DNA of 64,000 nt. Origin: Candidatus Woesebacteria bacterium. Lineage in GTDB: Bacteria; Patescibacteriota; Microgenomatia; UBA1400; UBA1396. The translations under genes and the position numbers were made by a program. The DNA is taken from NCBI GenBank assembly GCA_963749595.1, contig CAVVNJ010000002.1, positions 96,606-160,605 on the forward strand. Direction: 5' to 3'. Below, one piece after another: positions 2,881 to 63,828 of this stretch (the stretch's first letter is position 1; the number at the start of each line of letters is the position of its first letter). The notes below the pieces were generated by a model that had not been told where the DNA came from, searched no databases, and saw nothing but the letters and a program-made list of their open reading frames with translations.

Positions 2881-3381
2881 ATGGCGAGCCGCTCGCTCAA
2901 CAAGGTTTTGCTGATCGGAAACGTAACCCGCGATCCGGAACTGCGTTACACCCCGCAAAATACGGCTGTTTGTAAGTTTAGTGTCGCTACCAATCGCACC
3001 TGGACCGGCGGCGACGGCAGCCAGCAGGAAGCGGCCGAATTCACTCCCGTCGTCACCTGGGGCAAGTTAGCGGAAATCGCCAATCAAATCCTCACCAAAG
3101 GCCGCAAGGTCTACGTTGAGGGCCGCCTACAATCCCATACCTGGGAGAACAAAGAGGGCGTCAAACAAAAGACAACCGAGGTCATTGCCGACCAGCTGAT
3201 CGCTTTAGATTCCAGACCCGGTGCTGGGGGCGAAGGAGCCGAAGAGGGACGGGACTATTCCTATCCTGAAGAAGAAGGAGCCGCCAAACCGGCGCCCAAA
3301 AAGAAAAAGGATGAGGATGAATTAGCGGTTGATGACAACGTCGGTGGCGTTGACGACATCGCTGATGACATTCCTTTTTGA
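2881..3381 (+). CDS. ssb: single-stranded DNA-binding protein
   Basis: OB-fold N-terminus (LNKVLLIGNVTRDPELRYT), a Gly/acidic tail and the canonical C-terminal DDIPF. ATG 2881 is preferred over the track GTG at 2866. Confidence 0.93.
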   Translation: MASRSLNKVLLIGNVTRDPELRYTPQNTAVCKFSVATNRTWTGGDGSQQEAAEFTPVVTWGKLAEIANQILTKGRKVYVEGRLQSHTWENKEGVKQKTTEVIADQLIALDSRPGAGGEGAEEGRDYSYPEEEGAAKPAPKKKKDEDELAVDDNVGGVDDIADDIPF

Positions 3382-3391
3382 ACGTAAAAGT

Positions 3392-3475
3392 GGATTTTCC
3401 TTGGAAAGGAGAATCCCCGCTACATAAAAACCGTAAGGGGATTAATCTGGAAAGAATAATTCCCGCTACAAAATA
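3392..3475 (+). repeat. two tandem copies of a ~12-bp-stem hairpin motif followed by CCGCTACAnAAA, upstream of rpsR
   Basis: Copy 1 is ggattttccttggaaaggagaatcc+ccgctacataaaaa (3392-3430). Copy 2 is ggggattaatctggaaagaataattccc+gctacaaaata (3437-3475). A third copy lies at 63370-63409. Confidence 0.6.
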
Positions 3476-3484
3476 GAAAGAACT

Positions 3485-3673
3485 ATGAGACAACTCAAAA
3501 TTACTGAAATTCAGTACACCAACACCAAACTGTTGCAAAAATTCCTGACTCCGTCTGGCAGCATCGTGCCCCGGAGCAAGACCGGCCTCAGTGCCAAACT
3601 GCAGCACCGGGTGACCCGCGAAATCAAGCGCGCCCGTCATTTGGCGCTCTTACCGTTTACCAGCACCCTTTAA
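3485..3673 (+). CDS. rpsR: 30S ribosomal protein S18
   Basis: 62 aa with the S18 core ([43 protein letters not shown]). Confidence 0.93.
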
Positions 3674-3698: not shown

Positions 3699-4953
3699 AT
3701 GCGATTTAAAGGCCATCGGTTTGGGTTCAAGCTTTTTACCTATCTTCTGATAGCTGTTTTAGCTGGTGTAATCGGCTACCGGTCCGGCAAGGGATTAACC
3801 TGGCAACAAATTCTGCGGCTACCGACCAAGGCGGACATCAGCCAACTTAGTCGGCTACGCAATGCGGAACCAACGATTAGTCAGGGGACGGTCGATTTCT
3901 CCTTGTTCTGGGAAGTCTGGGCCAGACTCGAACGCGACTATGTGGATCCGTCCAAACTGGACGCCCAACAGATGGTTTATGGGGCCATTGCCGGAATGAC
4001 CAGTGCTTTGGGAGATCCTTACACTGTTTTCCTCAAGCCGGAAACCAAACAGCGCTTAACCGAAGACCTACAGGGTGAGTTTGACGGCGTCGGCATTCAA
4101 CTGGGCTATCGCGAGGGTCAATTGGCGGTCATTGCTCCGCTTAAAGGCCACCCAGCTGAGAAAGCTGGGGTTAGAGCCGGTGATTTTATTCTCCGAATCA
4201 TCGACGAACAGAAGAAAATTGATCGGGAAACCATCGGCATGAGTGCCGAAGAGGCAGTTTCCCTAATCCGCGGCAAGCGGGGAACTACGGTTAAATTGAC
4301 CCTGCTCACCCCGGAACCAGGAACCGCGCGACGTCACGCTCACCCGGGATAAAATCGAGATTCCTTCGGTGGAACTAAAAATAGTGGAGCAGGACGGCAA
4401 GCGCTATGGCTCATATCGTTCTCAGCCGCTTCGGGGACAACACCTTGCCCGAATGGGATAAGGTTGTCACCCAGCTTCTTCTGGAGGTCAAACTGGACGG
4501 CGTGGTGTTGGATATGCGTAATAACCCCGGCGGTTACCTGCAGGCAGCGATCGATATTTCCAGCGACTTCTTTGATGGCGGGAGTCGTCGTTTCCCAGGC
4601 CGGACGAGTCGCATCCGCAATCCTATACCACTACCCGTCGGCCTAGATTACAGAAGATCCCAGTGATCGTCTTGGTTAATAAGGGGAGCGCCTCGGCTTC
4701 GGAGATCGTGGCCGGCGCCGTCCGCGATCGGCGGCAGGCCAAGTTGGCTGGTGAAAAGACCTTTGGCAAGGGAACGGTCCAGGACGCCCAGCAGCTCGTG
4801 GACGGCGCCGGCCTGAACGTCACCATCGCCCGCTGGCTGCTTCCCTCTGGCGACTCCATCGACCACGAAGGTTTGGCCGTTTCCGTCGAGGCCATCGATA
4901 ATCCGGAGACCGTGGAAGACGAAGCAGTTGCCGCTGCCGCCAAAGCCCTTTAG
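3699..4953 (+). pseudogene. S41-family C-terminal processing peptidase (Ctp/Prc-like), reading frame broken at least 4 times
   Basis: Homology runs through three track ORFs (3699..4352, 4406..4666, 4663..4953) plus short stretches in other frames. The motifs are PDZ (GVGIQL...VIAPLKGHPAEKAGV), LDMRNNPGGYL and VLVNKGSASASEIVAGA. Shifts lie near 4325, 4403, 4585 and 4605. Confidence 0.85.
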
Positions 4954-4954
4954 A

Positions 4955-6113
4955 ATGAGAGTAATGGTTGATCGACGTTTCCGTGTCTCGAGCTTCGCGT
5001 TGGGCTTATTAGTTTCCGGACTGCTTCTGCTTTCCGCCGTTGGCGGCGCCCTGGCTGACCGGGTCTTCGTCGTTCAAACCCCTGGATCGCTGGTGGCCGC
5101 GCGGCGGACAACCGGTCGTCGGTCAGATCTTCACTGTCCCGCAATCCGCCGAACCAGCCATCGCCGTCGCGGAAAAAAGCCGCGACGCCGTCGTCACCGT
5201 GGCCGCCAAACGACCGGTGCCCAAACGGAACGTGTTGCCATTCGGCCTGCCAGATCGAGTCCGCCGAAACCGAATTGGTCCAGCAGGACATCGGTACGGG
5301 CTTTTCGGTTTCGCTGTCGGACGGTTTGATCGTTACCAACCGCCATGTCGTTGCTGATCCGTCCCTCGACGTACAAGATCATCGACGTCGACGGTCAGGA
5401 ATACGAAGTGCAGAAAATCTACCGCGATCCAACTAATGACCTGGCTATTCTTCAAACCACGGCCCATCTGCCAGCGCTCGCCGCTCGCTGACAGCAGTCA
5501 ACTCAAAGTCGGGCAATCCGTGGTCGCCATTGGTACGTCACTGGGCGAATTCCGTCAGAGTGTGACCACCGGCGTTATTTCCGGCCTGGGGCGGGGTATT
5601 GACGCCAGTGATGGATTCTCCGCCGAACATATTGATGATTTAATCCAGACCGACGCGGCGATTAATCCTGGTAATTCCGGCGGTCCGTTACTTAGCCTTA
5701 ATGGCGAAGCCGTTGGTGTTAACGTTGCCATGGCGGACGCGGAAAATATTGGTTTCGCGATTGCCATCAACATCGTTAAGTCCTCGATCGACAACTTCAA
5801 CAACACCGGCAAGTTTGACCGGCCGCTACTCGGAGTGCAATACAAATTAATCCCCCGTGAGACGGCTCTGCTTAATGACGTGCCTGAAGGGGCGTACATC
5901 GTGGCTGTTTTGCCCGGTACGACCGCGGAAAAGATGGGTCTTAAAGTCGGTGATATTCTGATTAAAGTTGATGGACAAGCCACCAAAGACACTACAGGCG
6001 GATTAGCCGGACTAATCAACCGCAAGAAAATCGGTGACACGGTTTCGGTGGAGTTGTGGCGCAATGGTGCTCTCCAGACTTTGTCCGGGGAACTTTTAAT
6101 TGCGCCGTCTTAG
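4955..6113 (+). pseudogene. HtrA/DegP-like trypsin-fold serine protease with C-terminal PDZ, frame broken at least 4 times
   Basis: Pieces lie in all three frames: IVTNRHVV, DLAILQ and DAAINPGNSGGPLL (catalytic Ser), then the PDZ (LPGTTAEKMGLKVGDILIKVDG). Shifts lie near 5070, 5260, 5368 and 5475. Confidence 0.85.
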
Positions 6114-7165
6114 AGTTTCATTAGACCCAGAACTAATCTGCCCAAGTTATGCAAAGACTCGATTGGCTGTCGCTCACTTACTGTATGAGCATGTTCACCG
6201 CCACTGCTAATATTAAAAACCGTTAACCCTTTGCCAGTATTAAAGATATTCGCGTCGGAACAACCAAAAGAAATTGTTGGTCTTTTTCTCTGTCGCAGAA
6301 TTGAATTCAACATACGTTGTAAATCGGCCATCGCAGTTCTTGAGTGACGATAGCCTGGGTTTTCAACTTGGACTTTGACCGATGTTCGATAACCATTTTT
6401 TCGCTGAGATATTTTCTGCAACCGGTCAACGGTTTGGTAGAACATATTTTCTTCAAAACAACGAATCTCACCCCCGAATTCCATGCTCCCCACTACCGTG
6501 TTTCTGGCTGAACCACCACTGATCAGGCCCACATTGACGAGAAGATCATTGCGGCGCAGGGATTCAATGTGGTTAAGAACCTCAATCGCCAGGGGAATAG
6601 CTGGGCGGGCTTGCCGGTAATAACCCGCATGGGCAGATTTGCCTCTGACCACAATGTCGAAGCGAGCATAAAAAGGCGAGGCGGAAACTATCGCTCCCAA
6701 ATCCGAACCGGCATCAAAAATATAGCCAACTTGGCTTTTCAGCAAAGCTTTATTAAAGCCTACGGCCCCATAATTTCCTGTCTCTTCTGAAGTCGTGAGC
6801 AATACCTCAATTGGACGATGGTTTGGCGCGTTCAGAATTGATTTCAGAGCCATCAGGATCGATACAATGGCGTTCTTATTATCAGCACCAAGAATCGTTG
6901 AACCATTTGAACGAATATATTTGCCGTCTATTATTGGAGAAACATCTGCACAGGGTCCGACCGTATCCAAATGGGCACAAAAAAATCTCGGCTCTCCCAT
7001 TCCGTCAATCCGGAAAAATATGTTGCCGAATTGGTCGGTCTCCGGTTGCACCATCGGTAGTTCGCGGTTAATCCAACCGAGAATAAATTTCCGAATTTTA
7101 GCTTCCTCTCCGCTTGGACTACTGATCCGACAAAGGTCGATAAACAATCTGGTCAACTCCGTCAT
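6110..7165 (-). CDS. M20-family metallopeptidase (peptidase T-like)
   Basis: CAHLDTVGP and TSEETGNYGA metal-ligand motifs. I place the start at MTELTRLF, with AGGAGG 7 nt upstream. The longer track ORF overlaps the upstream gene. Confidence 0.8.
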   Translation of the reverse strand: MTELTRLFIDLCRISSPSGEEAKIRKFILGWINRELPMVQPETDQFGNIFFRIDGMGEPRFFCAHLDTVGPCADVSPIIDGKYIRSNGSTILGADNKNAIVSILMALKSILNAPNHRPIEVLLTTSEETGNYGAVGFNKALLKSQVGYIFDAGSDLGAIVSASPFYARFDIVVRGKSAHAGYYRQARPAIPLAIEVLNHIESLRRNDLLVNVGLISGGSARNTVVGSMEFGGEIRCFEENMFYQTVDRLQKISQRKNGYRTSVKVQVENPGYRHSRTAMADLQRMLNSILRQRKRPTISFGCSDANIFNTGKGLTVFNISSGGEHAHTVSERQPIESLHNLGRLVLGLMKL

Positions 7166-7175
7166 TTTCTGCCTC

Positions 7176-8057
7176 CTATCTTTGTCCTGCCCGACGGGCT
7201 GCCTCTTCATAAAAGGCCGCAATTTTTCCATACGAACGCACTGAAATATCGCCCGGAGGAATCGATTCGCCCAACCACTCCCAATGCAGTCGCCGCATCT
7301 TCTGGTCAAACGACGATGCCTCATCCGGATCGATCGTCACCAGCGTGCAGGGGATATAGGCATTGCCACCAATCTGTTGAAATAGCGTCAGTAGATTTTG
7401 TTTGGTACTTTCATCAGAAGAGCGGCGATATTGACACGATTCGTGACCATAGCGTTCCGAAACCGGTTGGCAGGTGTCGGTCAAAAACGAAAGATAGGGG
7501 TGTTCCCAGTAACTGATCGCCCGACAATTCATTTTGTCAAAAACATGGCCGGTAACCAACCTTTTCACGGTTGAAATTCCAACGATTTTTATCCCGGCCG
7601 AACGGTATTCTGGTCTTCGGCGTAGATCATCGATTTTTTTTAGCCTCTCTCTTAAACCAATCGTTCCAAGTCCCTGATTTCGATATTTGGGGTTGGTGAT
7701 CCACGTACCCAGCTCAACTACCTGAAAGCCTAAAACCATCTCCTCACCATTTTCAAACGCCGGATAAATCGTGCCGTGATAGACGAATTCCCAACCTCGC
7801 TCGCGATCTAAACGAGCCAGGATACAACTCAAACCAGCGGAAAACTGTTCGCGGATTACCTCTGGAGTTTTGGCCAACATTTCCGAGGGGTGATTGTGGT
7901 TATAGTCGTTAACGCAGGACGATATTTGACAGAACAGATCCCACAAATCCCCGGCGCTCAGGCGATTATTTTCGACAGATTCTATTCCGTCAAGCACAAT
8001 TTGTCCCTGTGCCTCAGTGCTTTCAATATTTCGCCCCCGCTCTTCCTTTTCAATCAT
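7176..8057 (-). CDS. GNAT-like acetyltransferase domain protein
   Basis: 293-aa ORF with an acetyl-CoA-binding-type motif (YRNQGLGTIGLRERL). Assignment is weak outside that motif. Confidence 0.5.
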   Translation of the reverse strand: MIEKEERGRNIESTEAQGQIVLDGIESVENNRLSAGDLWDLFCQISSCVNDYNHNHPSEMLAKTPEVIREQFSAGLSCILARLDRERGWEFVYHGTIYPAFENGEEMVLGFQVVELGTWITNPKYRNQGLGTIGLRERLKKIDDLRRRPEYRSAGIKIVGISTVKRLVTGHVFDKMNCRAISYWEHPYLSFLTDTCQPVSERYGHESCQYRRSSDESTKQNLLTLFQQIGGNAYIPCTLVTIDPDEASSFDQKMRRLHWEWLGESIPPGDISVRSYGKIAAFYEEAARRAGQR

Positions 8058-8131
8058 TTTTCTCCTTGGTTGAATCGGATTTTATGACCGCCTCGATCAT
8101 CTGTAAAATATTTATGATAATTCCAACATTA

Positions 8132-8159
8132 TTGACATTTTTGTTGTAGATATTACAAT
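8132..8159 (+). promoter_or_regulatory. sigma70-type promoter, leaderless start
   Basis: TTGACA (8132-8137), a 16-nt spacer, TACAAT (8154-8159), then 6 nt to ATG 8166. Confidence 0.6.
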
Positions 8160-8165
8160 CGGCCC

Positions 8166-8810
8166 ATGCTTAAAGTATCGGATAGTGTGCGAAGAATCTT
8201 ATTGGGAGACGACGTTGCCCTGCAATCTCTCGAGTCCGGCATCTTAAACTTCAGCGCCTATGCCGCCAAGATCATTCTGGAAGTCGAGAATCTAACTTTT
8301 AAACCGGTAAAAAAGGGAACAGTGGTGGTCGCCCTGACCAGATTGGCTCAAGAAATAGGTGGTCTGGCGCCTTTAAAACCAAGGGTTATTTTGGACGATC
8401 TTAGTATTCGTTCACCGCTTTGTGACATTACTTATCCCAAAACGCCAGCCAACCGTGCAAAATTGGCCGAATTGCCAAAAATAGTCCCGATTGGCGAGAA
8501 TGCCTTCCTCGCTACGACCATCGGCTTAAGCGAAATTACGATTATTGCTCCGCAGTCTTCCTTAGATAGAATATTGGCCCATTTTGTAGACTCACCGAAA
8601 GCAGTACTTAAAGATCTGGTCGGAATTACAGTCCGATTCGATGAAAAGTATCTGCAGATACCGAACGTTCTTTATACTTTGCAGGCTGCTCTGGCCGTTC
8701 AGCGGATTAATTGCTTAGAAGTCATCTCTACCTACACTGAATTATCTTTCGTTATTGAGGCCAAGGATTTGGAGACCGCCACCAAAGCCCTGCGGCGATT
8801 TTTCGAATAA
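8166..8810 (+). CDS. hypothetical protein
   Basis: 214-aa ORF with coding-like composition and no motif I can name with confidence. Confidence 0.6.
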   Translation: MLKVSDSVRRILLGDDVALQSLESGILNFSAYAAKIILEVENLTFKPVKKGTVVVALTRLAQEIGGLAPLKPRVILDDLSIRSPLCDITYPKTPANRAKLAELPKIVPIGENAFLATTIGLSEITIIAPQSSLDRILAHFVDSPKAVLKDLVGITVRFDEKYLQIPNVLYTLQAALAVQRINCLEVISTYTELSFVIEAKDLETATKALRRFFE

Positions 8811-8838
8811 GAAAATTCCCACCAACTTAGACTTCCAC

Positions 8839-8981
8839 TTGACTGCATAGACAATAAACGGCATAATTAGGCGTTAATGAATCACAGTTCTGTTTGTAAC
8901 ACTGTTTCAATTATCAGGCCCTCCTAGGCGGAAAGATTCTGGGATTATCCCGATTCACCCGCCAAACGGCGGGACTTTTTT
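8839..8981 (+). promoter_or_regulatory. promoter + 16-codon micro-ORF + intrinsic terminator (candidate attenuator leader)
   Basis: TTGACT (8839-8844), 17 nt, then CATAAT (8862-8867). The micro-ORF 8877..8927 encodes MNHSSVCNTVSIIRPS. The terminator is CCCGCC-aaac-GGCGGG plus T6 (8958-8981). GGCGG at 8927-8931 could pair with the terminator 5' arm. Confidence 0.45.
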
Positions 8982-9006
8982 GCATCAATAAAATATTAAG
9001 GAAATT

Positions 9007-10637
9007 ATGAAAAGAAATCAACAAAATAATAACGTTAAAGAACAGCGCTTCTTGGTTAATCTGCAAGAGATGGCTTTCGCGAAAGTGGTGGAACAGTACG
9101 TCAACTTCAGCGAAATGAAAGAGAATTTAAATCAGCTCTTACCGCTAGTAAATCCAGCCTTCATTTATTTGCGGGAGTCGTATATTGCGGTGCTCTAGAC
9201 ACTTCCTATCATTTAGCTCAACAAGCCCTTGCCGGATCCCGTTCAAATCCGAATCGAATCACCGGTGCCAAGCTATCTTCGACCGATTATAAAAGGATCC
9301 TCCAGCATCACTTTCCGCAAGCCGCCAAGATCTGGGTTCTGGACGGTTTAGTTTTTAAACAACAATCGGCTGGTCTAAAACATCTCGCCGGCTTCAACGA
9401 TAACTCGGGAACCTTGATCGATGTCCTTAATTCTGCCGCTTCACTTAGTTTGGGAGCTGAAAACCCCTGGTTAGTGAAAGCCGACCACTTGGAAGACCTG
9501 CTTGGGATCCGTGACAATATCTGCGCGGCCTATCATCCTGGTGTTAGACAAGCGTTTGCGCTGGAGTCTTTAGCAAAACTCTTTCCCAATAAAACCGTTG
9601 CCGATGTCGCAGTGCATACGGAATCATCCGGCACCATCGTCAACTCCGTGGCGATTGAATCAGCGGTCGCCTTTGCGGAAAGAACTCATAATGCGACCAA
9701 GCCAATGCGACTTTTGGCCGTCGACGGCACGTGGGCTGGGGGATATGGCTCGGCTCGGGAAGCAACCGGGTTCGGTGTCGATCAACACCAAGTTAAGCGA
9801 GCTGGAAAAAGCACTTGGGCTGATCGTTGTCTGCCGCCGCCAACATCGGAAAACCGAACAAAATTTCTCGCCGTCGTCAAGGCCGAGTTAAAGAAACAAA
9901 CTGTGGCTGGAGTTTATCTTGAACCAGACGTAGTGGGGGATTTGGGGTTAGTTACTACCGACCCCCAGCTACTCCAACAAATCAAACATTTAATGAGCCG
10001 TCATCAATTGCCTATCATTTTGGATTGCGTGCAACAACTAGGCCGTTCCGGCAGCTATTGGGGCGAAAATGTGGATCGGATCTTTGCTGATTATCCGCTG
10101 CTGATTGTGACTACGGCTAAATCAGCTTCCAACGGTCAGCCTTTCGGTTTTACCCTGATGCCCAAGGAAGTCGCCGATGCGGCCGCCCCTCTTACTCAAA
10201 TCACCACTAACCAGATGAATGGGCCTTTGTTGCGATCACTGGTGGTGGCGGAAATTCTCAATAACGTCGAGTTCCAAACTTGGCTAAAAAGAAAATCACA
10301 CCAAATCGAAGAAATAGCCGACAAATATGGTTTCGCAATCGGCTCGCATGGATTGAGGGGAAAATATCTCAATCGTGGTGTCTATTTAAAAGATAATGAG
10401 CTTGTTAAGTTGGCTCAGATTGCCTTATTGGTTGAAGACGGTATTCTGGTCGGTGCAACACCAAATACCATCCGCTATCAACCAATGCTTTTGGAGTATA
10501 GCGAAACGAATCGGCTGATTGCAGAATTAATCTTTCGGAGAGTAAAACTAGTTCTAGATGGGGTTGTATCTTCGGAGGTGCAGTCTATTTTTGACCGAAT
10601 GCGTGACGCGCCAACTGGTTTAGCCAGAAAATGCTAA
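9007..10637 (+). CDS. class-III (PLP-dependent) aminotransferase-like protein, one frameshift near 9175-9200
   Basis: DCVQQLGRSG resembles DEVQTGfGRTG, and TTAKSASNG supplies a candidate PLP-lysine. The frame of ORF 9414..10637 is open back to about 9120 with no start codon. It joins ORF 9007..9198 only through a 1-nt shift. Confidence 0.65.
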
Positions 10638-10646
10638 ACTATCCCT

Positions 10647-10946
10647 ATGTCCTACCCCACCAAATCCGACCGAGAACTAATCAGCGCCTTTTCACAGCTG
10701 AAAAACGAAAAGGAAGTCACCGGCTTTCTCCGCGATCTCCTTACTCCGGCCGAAATCGAGGAGTTTTCCCGCCGCTTCCAGATCGCCAAACTGCTCTGGA
10801 CCACCAAGCTGTCCTATGCCGACATTGCCGAAAAGGCGAAGACTAGCACGACTACTGTCACCCGGGTTGGCCAATGGTTGTACAAGGAATCTTGGCACGG
10901 CTACCGGGTCGTTCTCCAGAGAACTTTTGGTGATTCCAAGCGTTAA
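10647..10946 (+). CDS. TrpR-like YerC/YecD family DNA-binding protein
   Basis: 99 aa with LLTPAEIEEFSRRFQIAKLL...SYADIAEKAKTSTTTVTRV (HTH). TGcTAAACT lies 6 nt upstream of the ATG, indicating a leaderless start. Confidence 0.8.
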   Translation: MSYPTKSDRELISAFSQLKNEKEVTGFLRDLLTPAEIEEFSRRFQIAKLLWTTKLSYADIAEKAKTSTTTVTRVGQWLYKESWHGYRVVLQRTFGDSKR

Positions 10947-10968
10947 TTCATGTTAGCGTATTAGCATG

Positions 10969-11163
10969 TTGACATACTATCTTTCCTAAGTTATACTGCA
11001 GCCATGTTAAAGCAATGGACCAATTTATTGGCAATCCATCACCACCTCCTTACTAGCGGGGTGATTTAACGTACTAAAAAAATAAAACAAGAAAACGTAG
11101 TCCCACCCCGCAGCACAGCGGGGTTTTTCGTACCGCAAAAAACGAAAGGACTGCGTTTTTTTA
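10969..11163 (+). promoter_or_regulatory. promoter + leaderless 21-codon micro-ORF (HHH) + two nested terminators (candidate attenuator)
   Basis: TTGACA (10969-10974), 17 nt, TATACT (10992-10997), then 6 nt to ATG 11004. The micro-ORF 11004..11069 encodes MLKQWTNLLAIHHHLLTSGVI. Terminator 1 is CCCCGC-agcaca-GCGGGG plus T5 (11106-11128). An outer stem pairs ACGTAGTCC (11095-11103) with GGACTGCGT (11148-11156) and is followed by a T-run. Confidence 0.5.
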
Positions 11164-11181
11164 TTGAAAGAAAGGATATGT

Positions 11182-12087
11182 ATGTCATATCAAGAAAATA
11201 GACCCTATGTAGTTTCGACAGATAGCCGGGGCTTACTCAAAAGTTGGGCGAGAAAGAACCAGCTCACGCTACCAAACGATGCGTACTTTCAGGGAATGCT
11301 CAAAGACCTTGAAGCAACCCTGAGACAGTATTTTGCTGAGGTTGAGATCGTGCCGGAAGAGTTCTTGCGCCAGGGACTCAATAGACTAATCATTAATTCG
11401 CCCGTTCCGGTGGTCTCGCTCGACCGCGCCTATGTCAACCCCAAACAAAGCAAGCTCTTGGGATTTTTGGACGCAACCAGAACGGTCGATACCAATCTCA
11501 ACAGCACTGGTTTGGGCAGTCGTGGGTTAGAGATCACTCTCGAGCGACAAATTGGGCAACTGGCAGCTAAACAGAGTGGAAAAACCATCGCACTGGCTGA
11601 CGACGTTATTTTTGAGGGAAAAACCATGCTCCAGCTAGTACAGAAATTCAGAAATAAAGGGGTGGTGGTTGATTCCGTCCTGGCGGGAATCGCCATTAAG
11701 GAGGGCAAAGAGCTGCTCGAACAAAATGGCATCAGGGTTGATTCTCTTATCGTTTATGACCAAGTCATTGACGAAATCTGTGAGCGCGATTTTGTTGTCG
11801 GCTGTCCATATTCGGGACGGAGCGTGGTTAATGGCCAAGGAATAATTGAGGGCGCTCCCTACCTTTACCCGTTTGGCAAGCCAGTGGAGTGGGCTTCTAT
11901 CCCACCAGAGGAAGCAGTAAACTTCTCCCTTTTTGCTCTGTACCAATCGCTGCAACTTTGGACTAAGACCGAACAACTTTCGCGCCAAAGTATCCCCACC
12001 CAACAAGTTGGCAAACCAGTCTTTGGTCTACCGAAAGGTAAATCAATAAGTGAAGCACTTGCTGCGGTAATGAAAGAACTCAAATAA
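11182..12087 (+). CDS. type-I phosphoribosyltransferase-domain protein, substrate unknown
   Basis: PRPP-binding-type motif IALADDVIFEGKTM. The ~130-aa N-terminal extension has no recognisable family. ATG 11182 has AAAGGA upstream. Confidence 0.6.
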   Translation: MSYQENRPYVVSTDSRGLLKSWARKNQLTLPNDAYFQGMLKDLEATLRQYFAEVEIVPEEFLRQGLNRLIINSPVPVVSLDRAYVNPKQSKLLGFLDATRTVDTNLNSTGLGSRGLEITLERQIGQLAAKQSGKTIALADDVIFEGKTMLQLVQKFRNKGVVVDSVLAGIAIKEGKELLEQNGIRVDSLIVYDQVIDEICERDFVVGCPYSGRSVVNGQGIIEGAPYLYPFGKPVEWASIPPEEAVNFSLFALYQSLQLWTKTEQLSRQSIPTQQVGKPVFGLPKGKSISEALAAVMKELK

Positions 12088-12112
12088 ATGCTGACTCTGA
12101 AAGGATTGAATT

Positions 12113-12610
12113 ATGAGACCAGAAACTAAACTTCTATTTATCGCAGCCACGCACGGCAATGAAAATTTTTCCATCCCAGTGTTTAAAAGCCTGGAGTCTG
12201 AATACCCTAGGAATAAGTGGGGCTATGACTGGATTATCGGCAATCCTAAAGCCCTAAATCAAGGGAAACGGTTTACTGAGACCGATCTTAACCGATCGGC
12301 GCCCGGTGATCCCAACTCATCACTTTACGAAGAGCGAAGAGCCGCCGAATTGATCGAAACTGCTCAAGACTACGATATGATTGTGGATATACACGGTACG
12401 GTTTCGCCTTGCGGTCTGGTCAAGATCATTCCCAAACCTAGTATTGAAAATCTGGCTCTGGCTTCGCTGTTTCCAGAGTTGGTAAACATCATCTGGTATT
12501 CCGCTCGATCTTTGAAAAAGGGCCCGCCGGTTCAGTTCATGGCAAAACCCGCACTGGAAATTGAGTGCGCATTGAGGACACATTTTTGTATCAATAGAAA
12601 GGAAATATGA
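12113..12610 (+). CDS. succinylglutamate desuccinylase/aspartoacylase (AstE/AspA, M14-like) family protein, short
   Basis: ATHGNE, DLNRSAPG and DIHGT zinc/active-site-like motifs. At 165 aa it is only about half the usual length. Confidence 0.55.
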   Translation: MRPETKLLFIAATHGNENFSIPVFKSLESEYPRNKWGYDWIIGNPKALNQGKRFTETDLNRSAPGDPNSSLYEERRAAELIETAQDYDMIVDIHGTVSPCGLVKIIPKPSIENLALASLFPELVNIIWYSARSLKKGPPVQFMAKPALEIECALRTHFCINRKEI

Positions 12611-13161
12611 AAACAAAAAATAGATTGCAAATCGGCGTCATGGGTTCGGCCGCCGACCTGAAATATGCCAGGGAAGTGGAACAAGCCGCTGAAAAACTCG
12701 GTGAGTTAATTGCCCAAAATGATGGCATTCTTTTCTTTGGCGCCGAAAAAGATAGCGACTCGTTATCGACGGCTGCCTGCAGAGGAGCAAAAAAGGCCAA
12801 TGGACTGACCGTTGGCGTCACGTATGGCAAGGGCAAAAACATCTGGGAGAAGGACTATGCTGACGTGATAATCCCGAGCGGTTTGGAGCGGGGAGGCGGC
12901 AGAGAGTTGGTACTGGTTTTGGCTTGCGACGCCATCATCTCTATCAGCGGCGGTTCGGGAACACTAACTGAACTAGCGATTGCCTACCAGGCTGACATTC
13001 CCATGGTGGCTCTGAAAGGGTTTGGTGGCTGGTCTGACCAACTTGCTGGCACCTATTTTGACGGGCGAAAACGTCGGAAAGTGGTCGAAGCTAACAATCC
13101 GGAAGAAGCCGTAGAAATTGCACTGCGCTTAGCCAGTGAGTACCGATCACGCTTCGTCTGA
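12607..13161 (+). CDS. TIGR00725/LOG-like (SLOG) Rossmann-fold protein
   Basis: IGVMGSA near the N-terminus and ISGGSGTLTELA. It overlaps the upstream stop (ATGA). Confidence 0.7.
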   Translation: MKTKNRLQIGVMGSAADLKYAREVEQAAEKLGELIAQNDGILFFGAEKDSDSLSTAACRGAKKANGLTVGVTYGKGKNIWEKDYADVIIPSGLERGGGRELVLVLACDAIISISGGSGTLTELAIAYQADIPMVALKGFGGWSDQLAGTYFDGRKRRKVVEANNPEEAVEIALRLASEYRSRFV

Positions 13162-14640: not shown

Positions 14641-15484
14641 TTAAACAAACAATACTGACAGAATACTTACCAAAACCAGATACCATGCAAAGTACACCAG
14701 GCGTGAATGCTTCATCGTGTACTCTAAAATCCATAAGGCCAGGAAGCCGAAGAGGGCCGAAGCAACCGTGGCGAGCAGATAAAAGCCCCAATCGATACTG
14801 ATTGCCACCCGCTCCCTGCCACAGGTCAACCAAATCTAAAGTGATCGCTCCGGCGATTGCCGGGATGCTAATAATGAAAGCGAATTCGAAAGCTTTGGTG
14901 CGTGGCAGACCAACGATCAGACCCGCAAAGAGGGTGGCTCCAGAACGGGAAACCGCCGGTAGAATAGCCAAGGCCTGAAATAATCCGACAAAGAAGGCCT
15001 GCCAAGAGTTGGGAGCGCTTAATTGGTAGCGCAGCTTAGCGCGATCAGCGATTTTCAATAAACCCTGGGAGACTTTCTCCCAAAATCGCCCACCCTGATC
15101 CTGACGATCTTCCTGGCGCAACAATTGGTCGGCCACGAACATAAAAAAGGCCGAAAATAAGAACTGGATGGCCAGGGCAGGCGGGCTAGTTTCGGCCGTT
15201 TCCAGATAGGGTTTTAGCAGCAAACCAAAACCAATCGCCGGAATGGTCGCGACCACAATCTGCAACCAATATTTTTGCGATAAATGTAGGAGCTGGCGGC
15301 GAAAATAGTAAACCAAGGCCAACAACGTGCCGATATGGACGATAATTTCAAAAGATAAGGAAAGCTGGGTAACGCCCAACCAGCGCTCGGCGAGAGCCAG
15401 ATGACCAGAGCTGGAGATCGGCAAAAATTCGGTAAAACCTTGCGTGGCGCCTAGGACAATCGCTTTCCAAAGGGAAAGTTCCAT
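14641..15484 (-). CDS. uppP: undecaprenyl-diphosphate phosphatase (BacA/UppP), one frameshift near 14800
   Basis: The N-terminus is GATQGFTEFLPISSSGHL. The true C-terminus (SIDWGFYLLATVASALFGF...) lies in ORF 14641..14829. The 376-aa track ORF is a read-through artefact into comM. Confidence 0.85.
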
Positions 15485-41042: not shown

Positions 41043-41061
41043 GGAACTTAAAAAAAGAATT

Positions 41062-41090
41062 GGGCGGGACGGATCTGATCCGTCCCGCCC
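41062..41090. terminator. perfect 13-bp hairpin between convergent genes
   Basis: GGGCGGGACGGAT-ctg-ATCCGTCCCGCCC. The T-run is present on the minus-strand side (AATTCTTTTTTT) and absent on the plus side. Confidence 0.7.
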
Positions 41091-41100
41091 GCTTCGCTAA

Positions 41101-42830: not shown

Positions 42831-43373
42831 ATGTTACACGACTTTCAATTCGAACCCACTCCCATACCCGGCTTGATCCTGATTCAGCCAAAAATTGCCG
42901 AGGATGAACGCGGCTTTTTCCTCGAGGATTATAATCGCCGGACCTTTGCCGAACAGGGTATTGACGTCGAGTTTATTCAGGATAATCACTCACACTCTTC
43001 CCGCGGAGTCTTGCGCGGCCTTCATTTTCAACGCGAGCCCATGGCCCAAGACAAATTGGTCCGTGTCGTCTCGGGCGAAGTTTATGACGTGGCAGCGGAT
43101 CTTCGCGTTGGTTCGCCCCATTACGGTCAGTGGTTTGGAACCCGCCTATCGGCCGAAAATAAACAAATGATGTTCGTTCCCCAGGGCTTTGCTCATGGCT
43201 TCCAGGTTCTGAGCCCGACGGTCGATTTTCTCTATAAAGTAAGCAATTATTATTCTCCGGCCCATGAAGCGGGAATCATTTGGAACGATCCGGATCTGGG
43301 CATTGATTGGCCAATTTCGGAATCGATTCTCTCCGCCAAAGATCAAGTTCTGCCGCGCCTAAAAGAACTTTAA
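42831..43373 (+). CDS. rfbC: dTDP-4-dehydrorhamnose 3,5-epimerase
   Basis: DERGFF...GVLRGLHFQ...KLVRVVSGEVYDVAADLR...FVPQGFAHGF. Confidence 0.92.
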   Translation: MLHDFQFEPTPIPGLILIQPKIAEDERGFFLEDYNRRTFAEQGIDVEFIQDNHSHSSRGVLRGLHFQREPMAQDKLVRVVSGEVYDVAADLRVGSPHYGQWFGTRLSAENKQMMFVPQGFAHGFQVLSPTVDFLYKVSNYYSPAHEAGIIWNDPDLGIDWPISESILSAKDQVLPRLKEL

Positions 43374-43387
43374 GCGAAAGGAGGGGG

Positions 43388-43717
43388 ATGAACACCATCC
43401 TGCAGTCCCGCAACATTGAGGTCGACGAGACGCTCGAGAAATTCATGAATCAACAGCTAGCTGAGCTGGACCGGCATCATTTTCGGTTGGACAAACTGAC
43501 GGTCGTTTTGGAGCGGGTTGAGAAGAAGAAAAATGATTCGTTTGCTAACCAGGTCACGCTGATCGCCGACTGGCCAGGGGAGAACGTCGTGGTGGAACGG
43601 CACGCCGAGGACCTGAAAGTGGCGTTCGTGGACGCCGTGGAACGGCTGGACCAGGCCTTGCTCAAAGCCAAGGAAAAACGCCGCGATGAAGAGCGTCGGT
43701 CGGAAAATCCCGCCTGA
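43388..43717 (+). CDS. hpf: ribosome hibernation factor (HPF/RaiA, short form)
   Basis: MNTILQSRNIEVDETLEKFMNQQL...DLKVAFVDAVERLDQAL. AAGGAGG lies upstream. Confidence 0.82.
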   Translation: MNTILQSRNIEVDETLEKFMNQQLAELDRHHFRLDKLTVVLERVEKKKNDSFANQVTLIADWPGENVVVERHAEDLKVAFVDAVERLDQALLKAKEKRRDEERRSENPA

Positions 43718-63090: not shown

Positions 63091-63153
63091 ATTTTCAGGT
63101 ACTAGTTGGCGAAATGGCAGTTGTTTGTTATAATTCCCTTTCGTAGGAATCCT

Positions 63154-63360
63154 ATGGCTACTAAATTCAAACATAAGACCCGCAAAACGGTCGTCAAGCG
63201 CTTCAAAATTACCGGCACCGGTAAAGTGATGCGCCGCTCCCAGAACATGCGTCACCTGCGCCGCAAGAAGTCCAAATCCTTGCAACGCAAGTACGCCATC
63301 CCGGTTGAAGTAAAAGGCGAATGGGCCAAGAAGATCAAACAAATGTTAGGAATCGCTTAA
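63154..63360 (+). CDS. rpmI: 50S ribosomal protein L35
   Basis: [28 protein letters not shown]. The internal Met of the track ORF is used. Confidence 0.9.
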
Positions 63361-63369
63361 AAACCGCAA

Positions 63370-63409
63370 GGGGATTTTCCCCAAAGGGGATAATCCCCGC
63401 TTCAAAAAA
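63370..63409 (+). repeat. third copy of the r-protein-operon hairpin motif, upstream of rplT
   Basis: GGGGATTTTCCCC-aaa-GGGGATAATCCCC (13-bp stem, 1 mismatch) followed by GCTTCAAAAAA. It aligns with the copies at 3392-3475. Confidence 0.6.
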
Positions 63410-63415
63410 GGAATT

Positions 63416-63778
63416 ATGTCCAGAGTTAAAACCGGCACCACCCGCCACGCCCGCCACAAAAAAGTCCTTGGTCTGACCAAGGGCTACCGCATGACTAAGA
63501 ATCGGCTGTATAAAGTCGCCCACGAAGCGATGATGCACGCCGGTGCGTACGCTTACATTGGCCGCAAGAACCGCAAGCGCGATTTTCGTTCCCTGTGGAT
63601 TGCCCGTATTAGCGCCGCCGTCAAGGCCGTCGCTGTCCAATTGAACTATTCCCGTTTCATGAACCAGCTCAAGAAAGCCAACATCCAGCTCGACCGCAAG
63701 ATGCTGGCTGACTTAGCCGTGCATGACATGGAAGCTTTTAGCGAGGTGGTCAAGGCCGCCGAGCAAAAAACCAAGTAA
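63416..63778 (+). CDS. rplT: 50S ribosomal protein L20
   Basis: [25 protein letters not shown]...[11 protein letters not shown]. Confidence 0.95.
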
Positions 63779-63803: not shown

Positions 63804-63828
63804 CCCCTCGCTCCGCGCGGGGTTTTTT
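63804..63828 (+). terminator. intrinsic terminator after rplT
   Basis: CCCCTCGC-tcc-GCGCGGGG (one mismatch) followed by TTTTTT. Confidence 0.65.

Follow-up and report, generated by a model that had tools for sequence, protein, structure and literature searches.

The 64-kb window analysed here, 64,000 nt of contig CAVVNJ010000002.1 from a Candidatus Woesebacteria bacterium, contains only two ribosomal protein (r-protein) operons, rpsF-ssb-rpsR and infC-rpmI-rplT, and both carry copies of one small hairpin element between two of their genes. Two copies, c1 and c2, occupy the 103-nt gap between the stop codon of ssb (3379-3381) and the start codon of rpsR (ATG at 3485), and a third, c3, occupies the 55-nt gap between the stop codon of rpmI (63358-63360) and the start codon of rplT (ATG at 63416). 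A preliminary description of this DNA had placed three hairpins here and named the neighbouring genes. The hairpins are present as quoted, and the ssb-rpsR and rpmI-rplT identities were confirmed from translations, Pfam domains of homologues, annotated orthologous loci and tblastn. The named matches among homologues of L20, the rplT product, are metagenome-assembled genomes (MAGs) of Woesebacteria and Pacebacteria, that is, Microgenomates of the candidate phyla radiation (CPR). The features of the two junctions are listed below, L070 being a relative of the window.

2881-3381, forward strand: ssb (tblastn with the L070 SSB, 88% identity over 2881-3378; orthologues carry Pfam SSB)
3382-3428, forward strand: hairpin copy c1, defined from the sequence, with 5' flank ACGTAAAA, stem 3392-3402 / 3406-3416, loop GGA (3403-3405) and tail CCGCTACATAAA
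3430-3474, forward strand: hairpin copy c2, in direct tandem with c1, with 5' flank ACCGTAA, stem 3437-3448 / 3453-3464, loop GGAA and tail GCTACAAAAT
3485-3673, forward strand: rpsR, encoding S18 of 62 aa (translation; homologues carry PF01084)
63154-63360, forward strand: rpmI, encoding L35 (translation; orthologues carry PF01632)
63363-63408, forward strand: hairpin copy c3, between rpmI and rplT, with 5' flank ACCGCAA, stem 63370-63382 / 63386-63398, loop AAA and tail GCTTCAAAAA
63416-63778, forward strand: rplT, encoding L20 (translation; homologues carry PF00453)

Each unit of approximately 46 nt consists of an 11-13-bp stem-loop followed by a conserved single-stranded tail of the form G-CT(A/T)C-A-rich. 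The stem of c1 comprises 11 bp, including one G-U pair, and is followed by the tail CCGCTACATAAAA; that of c2 has 12 positions with one A-A mismatch and one G-U pair (post-stem tail GCTACAAAATAG), and that of c3 has 13 positions with one T-T mismatch (post-stem tail GCTTCAAAAAA). The c1 stem starts 10 nt past the ssb stop codon, while the c3 stem starts 9 nt past the rpmI stop codon and ends 17 nt before the rplT start codon. From the c2 tail the sequence continues into a weak Shine-Dalgarno motif, GAAAGAA, and the rpsR start codon. When a fourth distinct copy, found at the ssb-rpsR junction of the relatives L070 and L071, is taken together with c1-c3, the stem-loops span 25-29 nt with loops of 3-4 nt, and all known copies face the same way with respect to transcription. 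In c1, c3 and the L070 copy, 8-10 nt separate the upstream stop codon from the base of the hairpin, and downstream of the hairpins comes a 17-23-nt A-rich unpaired stretch that holds the Shine-Dalgarno sequence.

The hairpins are real, as the preliminary description had held: all three window copies fold far better than dinucleotide shuffles (z of -3.7 for c1, -4.5 for c2 and -3.2 for c3), with sense-strand minimum free energies (MFEs) of -14.2, -14.5 and -21.5 kcal/mol, respectively. Within the window the core AATYCCCGCTWCA occurs exactly three times. An nhmmer profile built from the three copies recovers only those three, with E-values of 1e-11 to 1e-14 and the next match at E > 0.1, and a covariance model scores them at 55.8 bits (c1, E 3.5e-14), 47.2 bits (c2) and 59.8 bits (c3). 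A degenerate pattern with mismatches, nhmmer and the covariance model with its filters off all yielded no further copy in the window, and near-matches at 2429 and 43265 are not hairpins and were discarded.

Evidence that the pairing itself is maintained comes from comparing the four distinct copies, in which 6 of the 13 stem pairs have changed on both sides, in keeping with the earlier claim that pairing survives the differences between stems. Paired cells amount to 84%, against 74% in shuffles, with none of 500 shuffles reaching the observed value, and slid registers all score below the true one. The L070 copy has a stem-loop that is identical to c1 or c2 at only 13 of 29 positions (45%) and yet is paired at 12 of 13. 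Its tail and ribosome-binding region match c2 over 21 of 21 nt, while the neighbouring genes are only approximately 79% identical; part of this 21-nt stretch is the rpsR ribosome-binding site. Strand asymmetry is also evident. Each copy has a G-U pair on the sense strand or is without the corresponding A-C mismatch, and the antisense strands fold at -10.3 (c1), -9.2 (c2), -20.7 (c3) and -15.9 kcal/mol (L070), so that the sense strand is the more stable in four of four. These observations point to pairing that is under constraint in the sense RNA, although constraint on one specific DNA strand would be equally compatible with them.

The same two junctions in related lineages are almost all free of the element, as listed below with nucleotide identity to the window, the length of the intergenic gap and the presence of the hairpin.

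rpmI-rplT, L069: 89.8% over rpmI plus rplT; gap of 9 nt; no hairpin
rpmI-rplT, L001/L002: 77%; gap of 9 nt; no hairpin
rpmI-rplT, L049-L052: more distant; gap of 19 nt; no hairpin
rpmI-rplT, L054: more distant; gap of 19 nt; no hairpin
rpmI-rplT, L053: more distant; gap of 24 nt; no hairpin
ssb-rpsR, L055: about 79%; gap of 8 nt; no hairpin
ssb-rpsR, L056/L057: more distant; gap of 9 nt; no hairpin
ssb-rpsR, L058/L059: more distant; gap of 16 nt; no hairpin
ssb-rpsR, L070/L071: about 79%; gap of 60 nt; one copy

The hairpin is therefore present in none of the five related lineages examined at rpmI-rplT and is absent from three of the four examined at ssb-rpsR. Flanking sequences are colinear and align without gaps, leaving an extra 46 nt in the window at rplT (relative to L001) and approximately 95 nt at rpsR, and each insert falls precisely where the upstream stop codon gives way to the downstream Shine-Dalgarno sequence. 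In the hairpin-free relatives the Shine-Dalgarno sequence abuts or overlaps that stop codon, an arrangement that reads as classic translational coupling, which the inserts would break. The two junctions also closely resemble each other, both following TAA(AAA)GGA(A/G)AAATATG.

L070 derives from JGI sample 3300037424 and L071 from an independent Sequence Read Archive (SRA) run, SRR12684511; both were reached through cluster members of the closest S18, and they are identical over the compared stretches. Their unit at ssb-rpsR reads GGGATGCTTTCCC GTC GGGAAGGCTTCCC, then GCTACAAAATAGAAAGA, and folds at -20.2 kcal/mol (z -4.2). No copy stands at rplT in L069, a locus from the same sample as L070 and probably from the same organism. 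Judged by the identity of the flanking genes, the sister of L070 is L055, from SRR22388142, at 88%, and both are approximately 79% identical to the window, so that a copy shared by the window and L070 and missing from L055 implies either one gain followed by a precise loss or two gains. Whichever applies, the element turns over quickly within a roughly genus-level clade, and the rplT copy and the tandem duplication are specific to the lineage of the window. The preliminary description had made further copies and covariation in relatives a test of its reading, and the outcome is mixed: for the nearest relative, approximately 22 kb hold one copy found by the covariance model, that of L070/L071, while approximately 100 kb from other relatives hold none, with nothing beyond the known copies across 187 kb of window plus relatives.

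The 60-nt hairpin spacer of L070 (6192-6251) keeps ssb and rpsR in frame with no in-frame stop after the TAA, and readthrough there would fuse SSB to S18. This is probably a coincidence. In the window a TAA follows after one codon, and early stop codons follow in the window and c3 spacers, unlike in the L070 spacer. A 28-codon open reading frame (ORF) running from GTG at 3390 to TAG at 3474-3476 across c1 and c2 was rejected, as it has no Shine-Dalgarno sequence and no counterpart in c3 or L070.

No established RNA family accounts for the element. Rfam 15 at its gathering threshold finds only two tRNAs in the window, and around both loci matches at E up to 10 are noise, with no L20 leader or other r-protein leader among them, which bears out the earlier impression that no known L20 or S18 leader is present. 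Patterns matched exactly against 185,579 species genomes, JGI metagenomes and IMG/VR returned chance, non-hairpin matches only, although the patterns were strict and would miss divergence of the L070 type, so that this negative is weak evidence. The 46 stretches from the species genomes are one site common to Bacillus cereus-group genomes plus scattered chance matches, none with a long continuous stem; the single match in metagenome contigs lies within a coding region and is not palindromic; and in the viral contigs one pattern had eight chance matches and the tail pattern had none. Two other origins or roles were tried and set aside. The sequence AATCCCCGCT resembles a T-arm plus acceptor end, but it is unlike the two tRNAs of the window, and the small alternative hairpins can be formed by c3 only. 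A promoter scan found no promoter borne by the element, and hexamers picked out by eye are inconsistent between copies.

The copies are homologous, are insertions relative to close relatives, have kept their pairing through compensatory changes and have a conserved tail. Near-universal absence from close relatives argues for a recently spreading repeat rather than a conserved r-protein regulator. The feature exists and its structure is under constraint, yet it is no conserved r-protein operator. The shared translational operator for r-protein genes that the preliminary description had proposed does not fit clean insertions at junctions that are hairpin-free in nearly all relatives, or two unrelated downstream proteins. 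With confidence that we would put at about even, we favour the reading that the copies belong to a young, lineage-restricted and duplicating palindromic repeat, similar to the repetitive extragenic palindromic (REP) elements, that forms intercistronic hairpins in mRNA. The best reading of the family is that it is confined to a narrow clade of CPR Microgenomates, of roughly genus rank, and behaves like the GTAG-tagged REPs.

The GTAG- and CGTC-tagged REPs have been described as having stems of 6-13 bp, loops of 2-4 nt and an unpaired GTAG tag, with sub-families that differ by complementary stem changes and G-T pairs, a preference for positions less than 20 nt after the upstream ORF and between co-directional genes, and inverted dimers as the usual pairing, direct (head-to-tail) tandems being rare (PMC3733652, Di Nocera et al. 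2013). On the opposite strand, the sequence is GTAG-C-stem for c1, c2 and L070 but GAAG-C-stem for c3. The element is thus a small palindrome within the REP range (20-40 bp, 6-13-bp stem, short loop), it has an unpaired GTAG/GYRG tag, albeit in four copies only, such that a chance tetranucleotide is possible, and it sits just 3' of an ORF, as REPs do between unidirectional or convergent genes. Compared with the E. coli REP/BIME, the Stenotrophomonas SMAG and the GTAG-24 elements with their 12-13-bp stems, it shares the 29-nt stem-loop, the 11-13-bp stem with a 3-4-nt loop, the unpaired GTAG-type end tag, the position less than 20 nt post-stop between co-directional genes, the complementary stem variants with G-T pairs and the patchiness among close relatives. 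It differs in having three copies in 64 kb at two junctions, in the direct tandem pair, in one base standing between tag and stem, in the GAAG copy, and in its host, a small-genome CPR bacterium. Insertions of the MITE type (miniature inverted-repeat transposable elements), such as the Neisseria Correia elements and the Rickettsia RPEs, are likewise short inverted-repeat inserts in transcribed regions that form RNA hairpins and are patchy in relatives, but they typically measure approximately 100-150 bp or more, compared with approximately 46 nt here. MITEs are marked by terminal inverted repeats plus a target-site duplication and mostly exceed 50-100 bp; here the entire unit is one inverted repeat. 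Runs of A (AAAAA) occur on both sides of the c3 insert and could represent a target duplication, a call that the A-rich context makes ambiguous.

Several observations weigh against a REP-like repeat. The four distinct copies lie at two types of junction, both in r-protein operons, whereas REPs usually number tens to hundreds and are scattered; the direct tandem is an arrangement rare among them; and one copy has GAAG instead of GTAG. No transposase, and in particular no REP-associated tyrosine transposase (RAYT) gene, is found among the 40 window ORFs scanned with Pfam, and the chance-only result from the public collections counts on the same side. If two independent placements were made at random among approximately 60 spacers, the chance that both r-protein operons would be hit is approximately 0.003-0.01. 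Such a bias hints at selection or target preference beyond a purely selfish element, possible causes being selection, a preference for highly transcribed DNA, or microhomology between similar junctions. Moreover, we infer every functional step of the hairpin mechanism.

Under the REP-like reading, the element would have settled first between ssb and rpsR, the site common to the window and L070/L071, and would then have been duplicated in tandem in the lineage of the window and copied into the rpmI-rplT junction, on each occasion entering at the precise point where the downstream Shine-Dalgarno sequence follows the upstream stop codon. A Y1/RAYT-type transposase that works on single-stranded hairpin DNA may have done the copying or, alternatively, copying may have proceeded by template switching or gene conversion through microhomology of the junctions, TAA...GGAAATATG. 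The 3' arm of c1, AAGGAGAAT (3406-3414), is nearly identical to the Shine-Dalgarno block of L055, TAAGGAGAAAT (L055 232-243), which stands directly after the ssb stop codon, and the ancestral junction, without a hairpin, already forms a small quasi-palindrome of its own (CTTC TAA GGAG). Together these features raise the possibility that the hairpin stems from the junction by template switching and did not arrive from elsewhere.

Once transcribed within the polycistronic mRNA, the element would fold into a stable hairpin, at 8-10 nt from the stop codon upstream. In E. coli, according to PMC12306157, which cites Liang, Rudd and Deutscher (2015) on this point, terminating ribosomes are stalled and translation is lowered by REPs that lie closer than 16 nt to a stop codon. 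If that account carries over, the hairpins at ssb and rpmI, whose base is similarly close to the stop codon, could impede the terminating ribosome; here a downstream cistron follows at 17-23 nt, and an effect on coupling may be the main one, beyond any on the upstream gene by itself. Stalling would then break the tight stop/start coupling seen in relatives and uncouple rpsR from ssb and rplT from rpmI, while the A-rich tail would leave the downstream ribosome-binding site unpaired. REPs are also said, in connection with Higgins and Newbury, to be the classic barriers to 3' exonucleases that give cistrons of one operon unequal stability, and the hairpins may act as such barriers. The predicted outcome is a shift in relative output or stability between the upstream cistrons (ssb, rpmI) and the downstream cistrons (rpsR, rplT).

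A selfish or neutral palindromic insertion without an RNA role, its pairing kept by copying of single-stranded DNA hairpins or by gene conversion with other genomic copies, is another reading. It would persist at the junctions since it leaves the Shine-Dalgarno sequence free, and it is favoured by the patchiness in close relatives (down to L055, the sister of L070, where a precise loss or an independent gain is needed), the fast turnover of stem sequence and the REP-like anatomy. A strand-specific preference for G-T pairs would be expected of HUH transposases, which act on one DNA strand. The 21-nt tail conserved against its 79% background fits such an insertion poorly, though the stretch is partly ribosome-binding site, as do the constant 8-10-nt spacing from the upstream stop codon, the single orientation relative to transcription and the location of both known loci in r-protein operons. 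A neutral, tolerated insertion is a serious rival, if on balance a somewhat unlikely one. That both r-protein operons of the window carry the element is the main reason for retaining a lineage-specific regulator as a candidate, namely a newly evolved cis-regulatory RNA that would coordinate the synthesis of S18 and L20, either as the operator of a single RNA-binding factor acting in trans or as a device that senses ribosomes. Every known copy lies directly 5' of an r-protein gene in the sense orientation, the other approximately 60 intergenic spacers of the window have none, covariation favours the sense-strand RNA and the single-stranded tail is conserved. Such a regulator is nonetheless doubtful in view of the hairpin-free orthologous junctions in nearly all relatives and a sample of two loci. 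S18 and L20 are unrelated and bind different rRNAs, so that one motif common to both argues against mimicry of their rRNA sites; the window itself has no rRNA gene. Known r-protein leaders (the L20 leader RF00558, the E. coli L20 pseudoknot and the S6:S18-binding rpsF leader) occur in the same operons as structured RNA 5' of an r-protein gene, but they stand ahead of the first cistron under their control, imitate a site on rRNA and have been kept across orders or phyla, whereas this element lies between cistrons, has one form for two unrelated proteins, is missing from near relatives and has no match to any Rfam covariance model. Framed as an incipient regulon, the proposal would be that a hairpin arose in one CPR genus and was recruited to r-protein stop/start junctions, at rpsR and then at rplT, replacing coupling by a shared hairpin-dependent control that may work through ribosome stalling at the upstream stop codon or through binding of a common factor. 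We regard this version, too, as unlikely.

The preliminary description had also offered an RNase III or processing site; the corresponding rival is a site where RNase III or another endonuclease would separate the cistrons. A stable hairpin between cistrons with an A-rich single strand after it would suit such a site, and relatives encode RNase III. Substrates of RNase III are typically approximately 20 bp, roughly two helical turns, and the stems of 11-13 bp with mismatches fall below that length; this and the want of conservation in relatives make a processing site very unlikely. Less likely still, in our estimate, is that the element terminates or attenuates transcription intrinsically, on whichever strand, or that it is a palindromic operator for a dimeric DNA-binding protein. 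The hairpin is rich in G+C and on the minus strand T-runs occur a few bases beyond the stem, but these are not adjacent to it, and that of c3 predates the insertion. The tails (GCUACA.../GCUUCA...) are A-rich with no U-tract, no T-tract follows any copy, and a terminator scan flags no copy on either strand, in accord with the preliminary description, while detecting a genuine canonical hairpin-plus-T-tract terminator after rplT at 63806-63822. Compensatory changes on both arms, together with G-T pairs, argue for nucleic-acid pairing and against a duplex-DNA operator with two half-sites of one protein consensus. What stands of the preliminary description is that these are real hairpins with covarying stems, neither terminators nor a known leader; its operator and processing-site readings are not supported.

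If the REP-like reading is true, the element would represent a family of small palindromic repeats in a genome of the CPR/Microgenomates, no report of REPs in the CPR having been found in a limited literature search. The family would have been caught very early, while it numbers one to three copies and the sequence of events can still be read. A tightly coupled r-protein stop/start junction has been pulled apart by a structured insert of 46-95 nt and the genes survive, which bears on the origin of intercistronic regulatory hairpins. No new conserved r-protein regulator is revealed.

Other features of the two operons and of the window were recorded alongside. A sigma-70-like promoter (TTGGCG-17 nt-TATAAT with an upstream TG) was found by the promoter scan at 63106-63134, between infC and rpmI, which suggests that rpmI-rplT may be transcribed independently of infC; a TATAAT similar to that of the rpmI promoter is also present in L001. 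S18 is short in this clade, at 62 aa in the window, a length common to all close homologues, compared with about 75 aa in E. coli. A gene for a hibernation factor (Pfam Ribosomal_S30AE) lies at 43307-43717, separate from the r-protein operons.

Three genes that are intact in L070 are frame-split in the window (3699-6110 and 14644-15478): an S41 peptidase (frame 3 then 1, at approximately 4315-4616), a trypsin-like protease (frames 2/3, 4964-6110) and BacA/UppP (frames -1/-2). Either these are pseudogenes or the assembly contains indel errors, and in the latter case homopolymer runs within the hairpins could also be one base too long or too short. A block of approximately 7 kb (6110-13147), flanked by the protease gene and a ComM/Mg-chelatase-like gene, encodes an M20 peptidase, an ACT-domain protein, a class-III aminotransferase and Trp-repressor-like, AstE/AspA-like and SLOG/LOG-like proteins, and is absent from the otherwise syntenic L070, L056 and L058.

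Other long-stem hairpins, considered as further families, are mostly terminators in the window and relatives alike. The strongest hairpin of the window (41057-41095; 13 perfect bp, extendable to 17; -29.7 kcal/mol) begins 15-20 nt after a gene for an AhpC/TSA peroxiredoxin, with an A-run upstream and no T-run downstream on the plus strand; it looks like a minus-strand terminator and lies outside the c1-c3 family.

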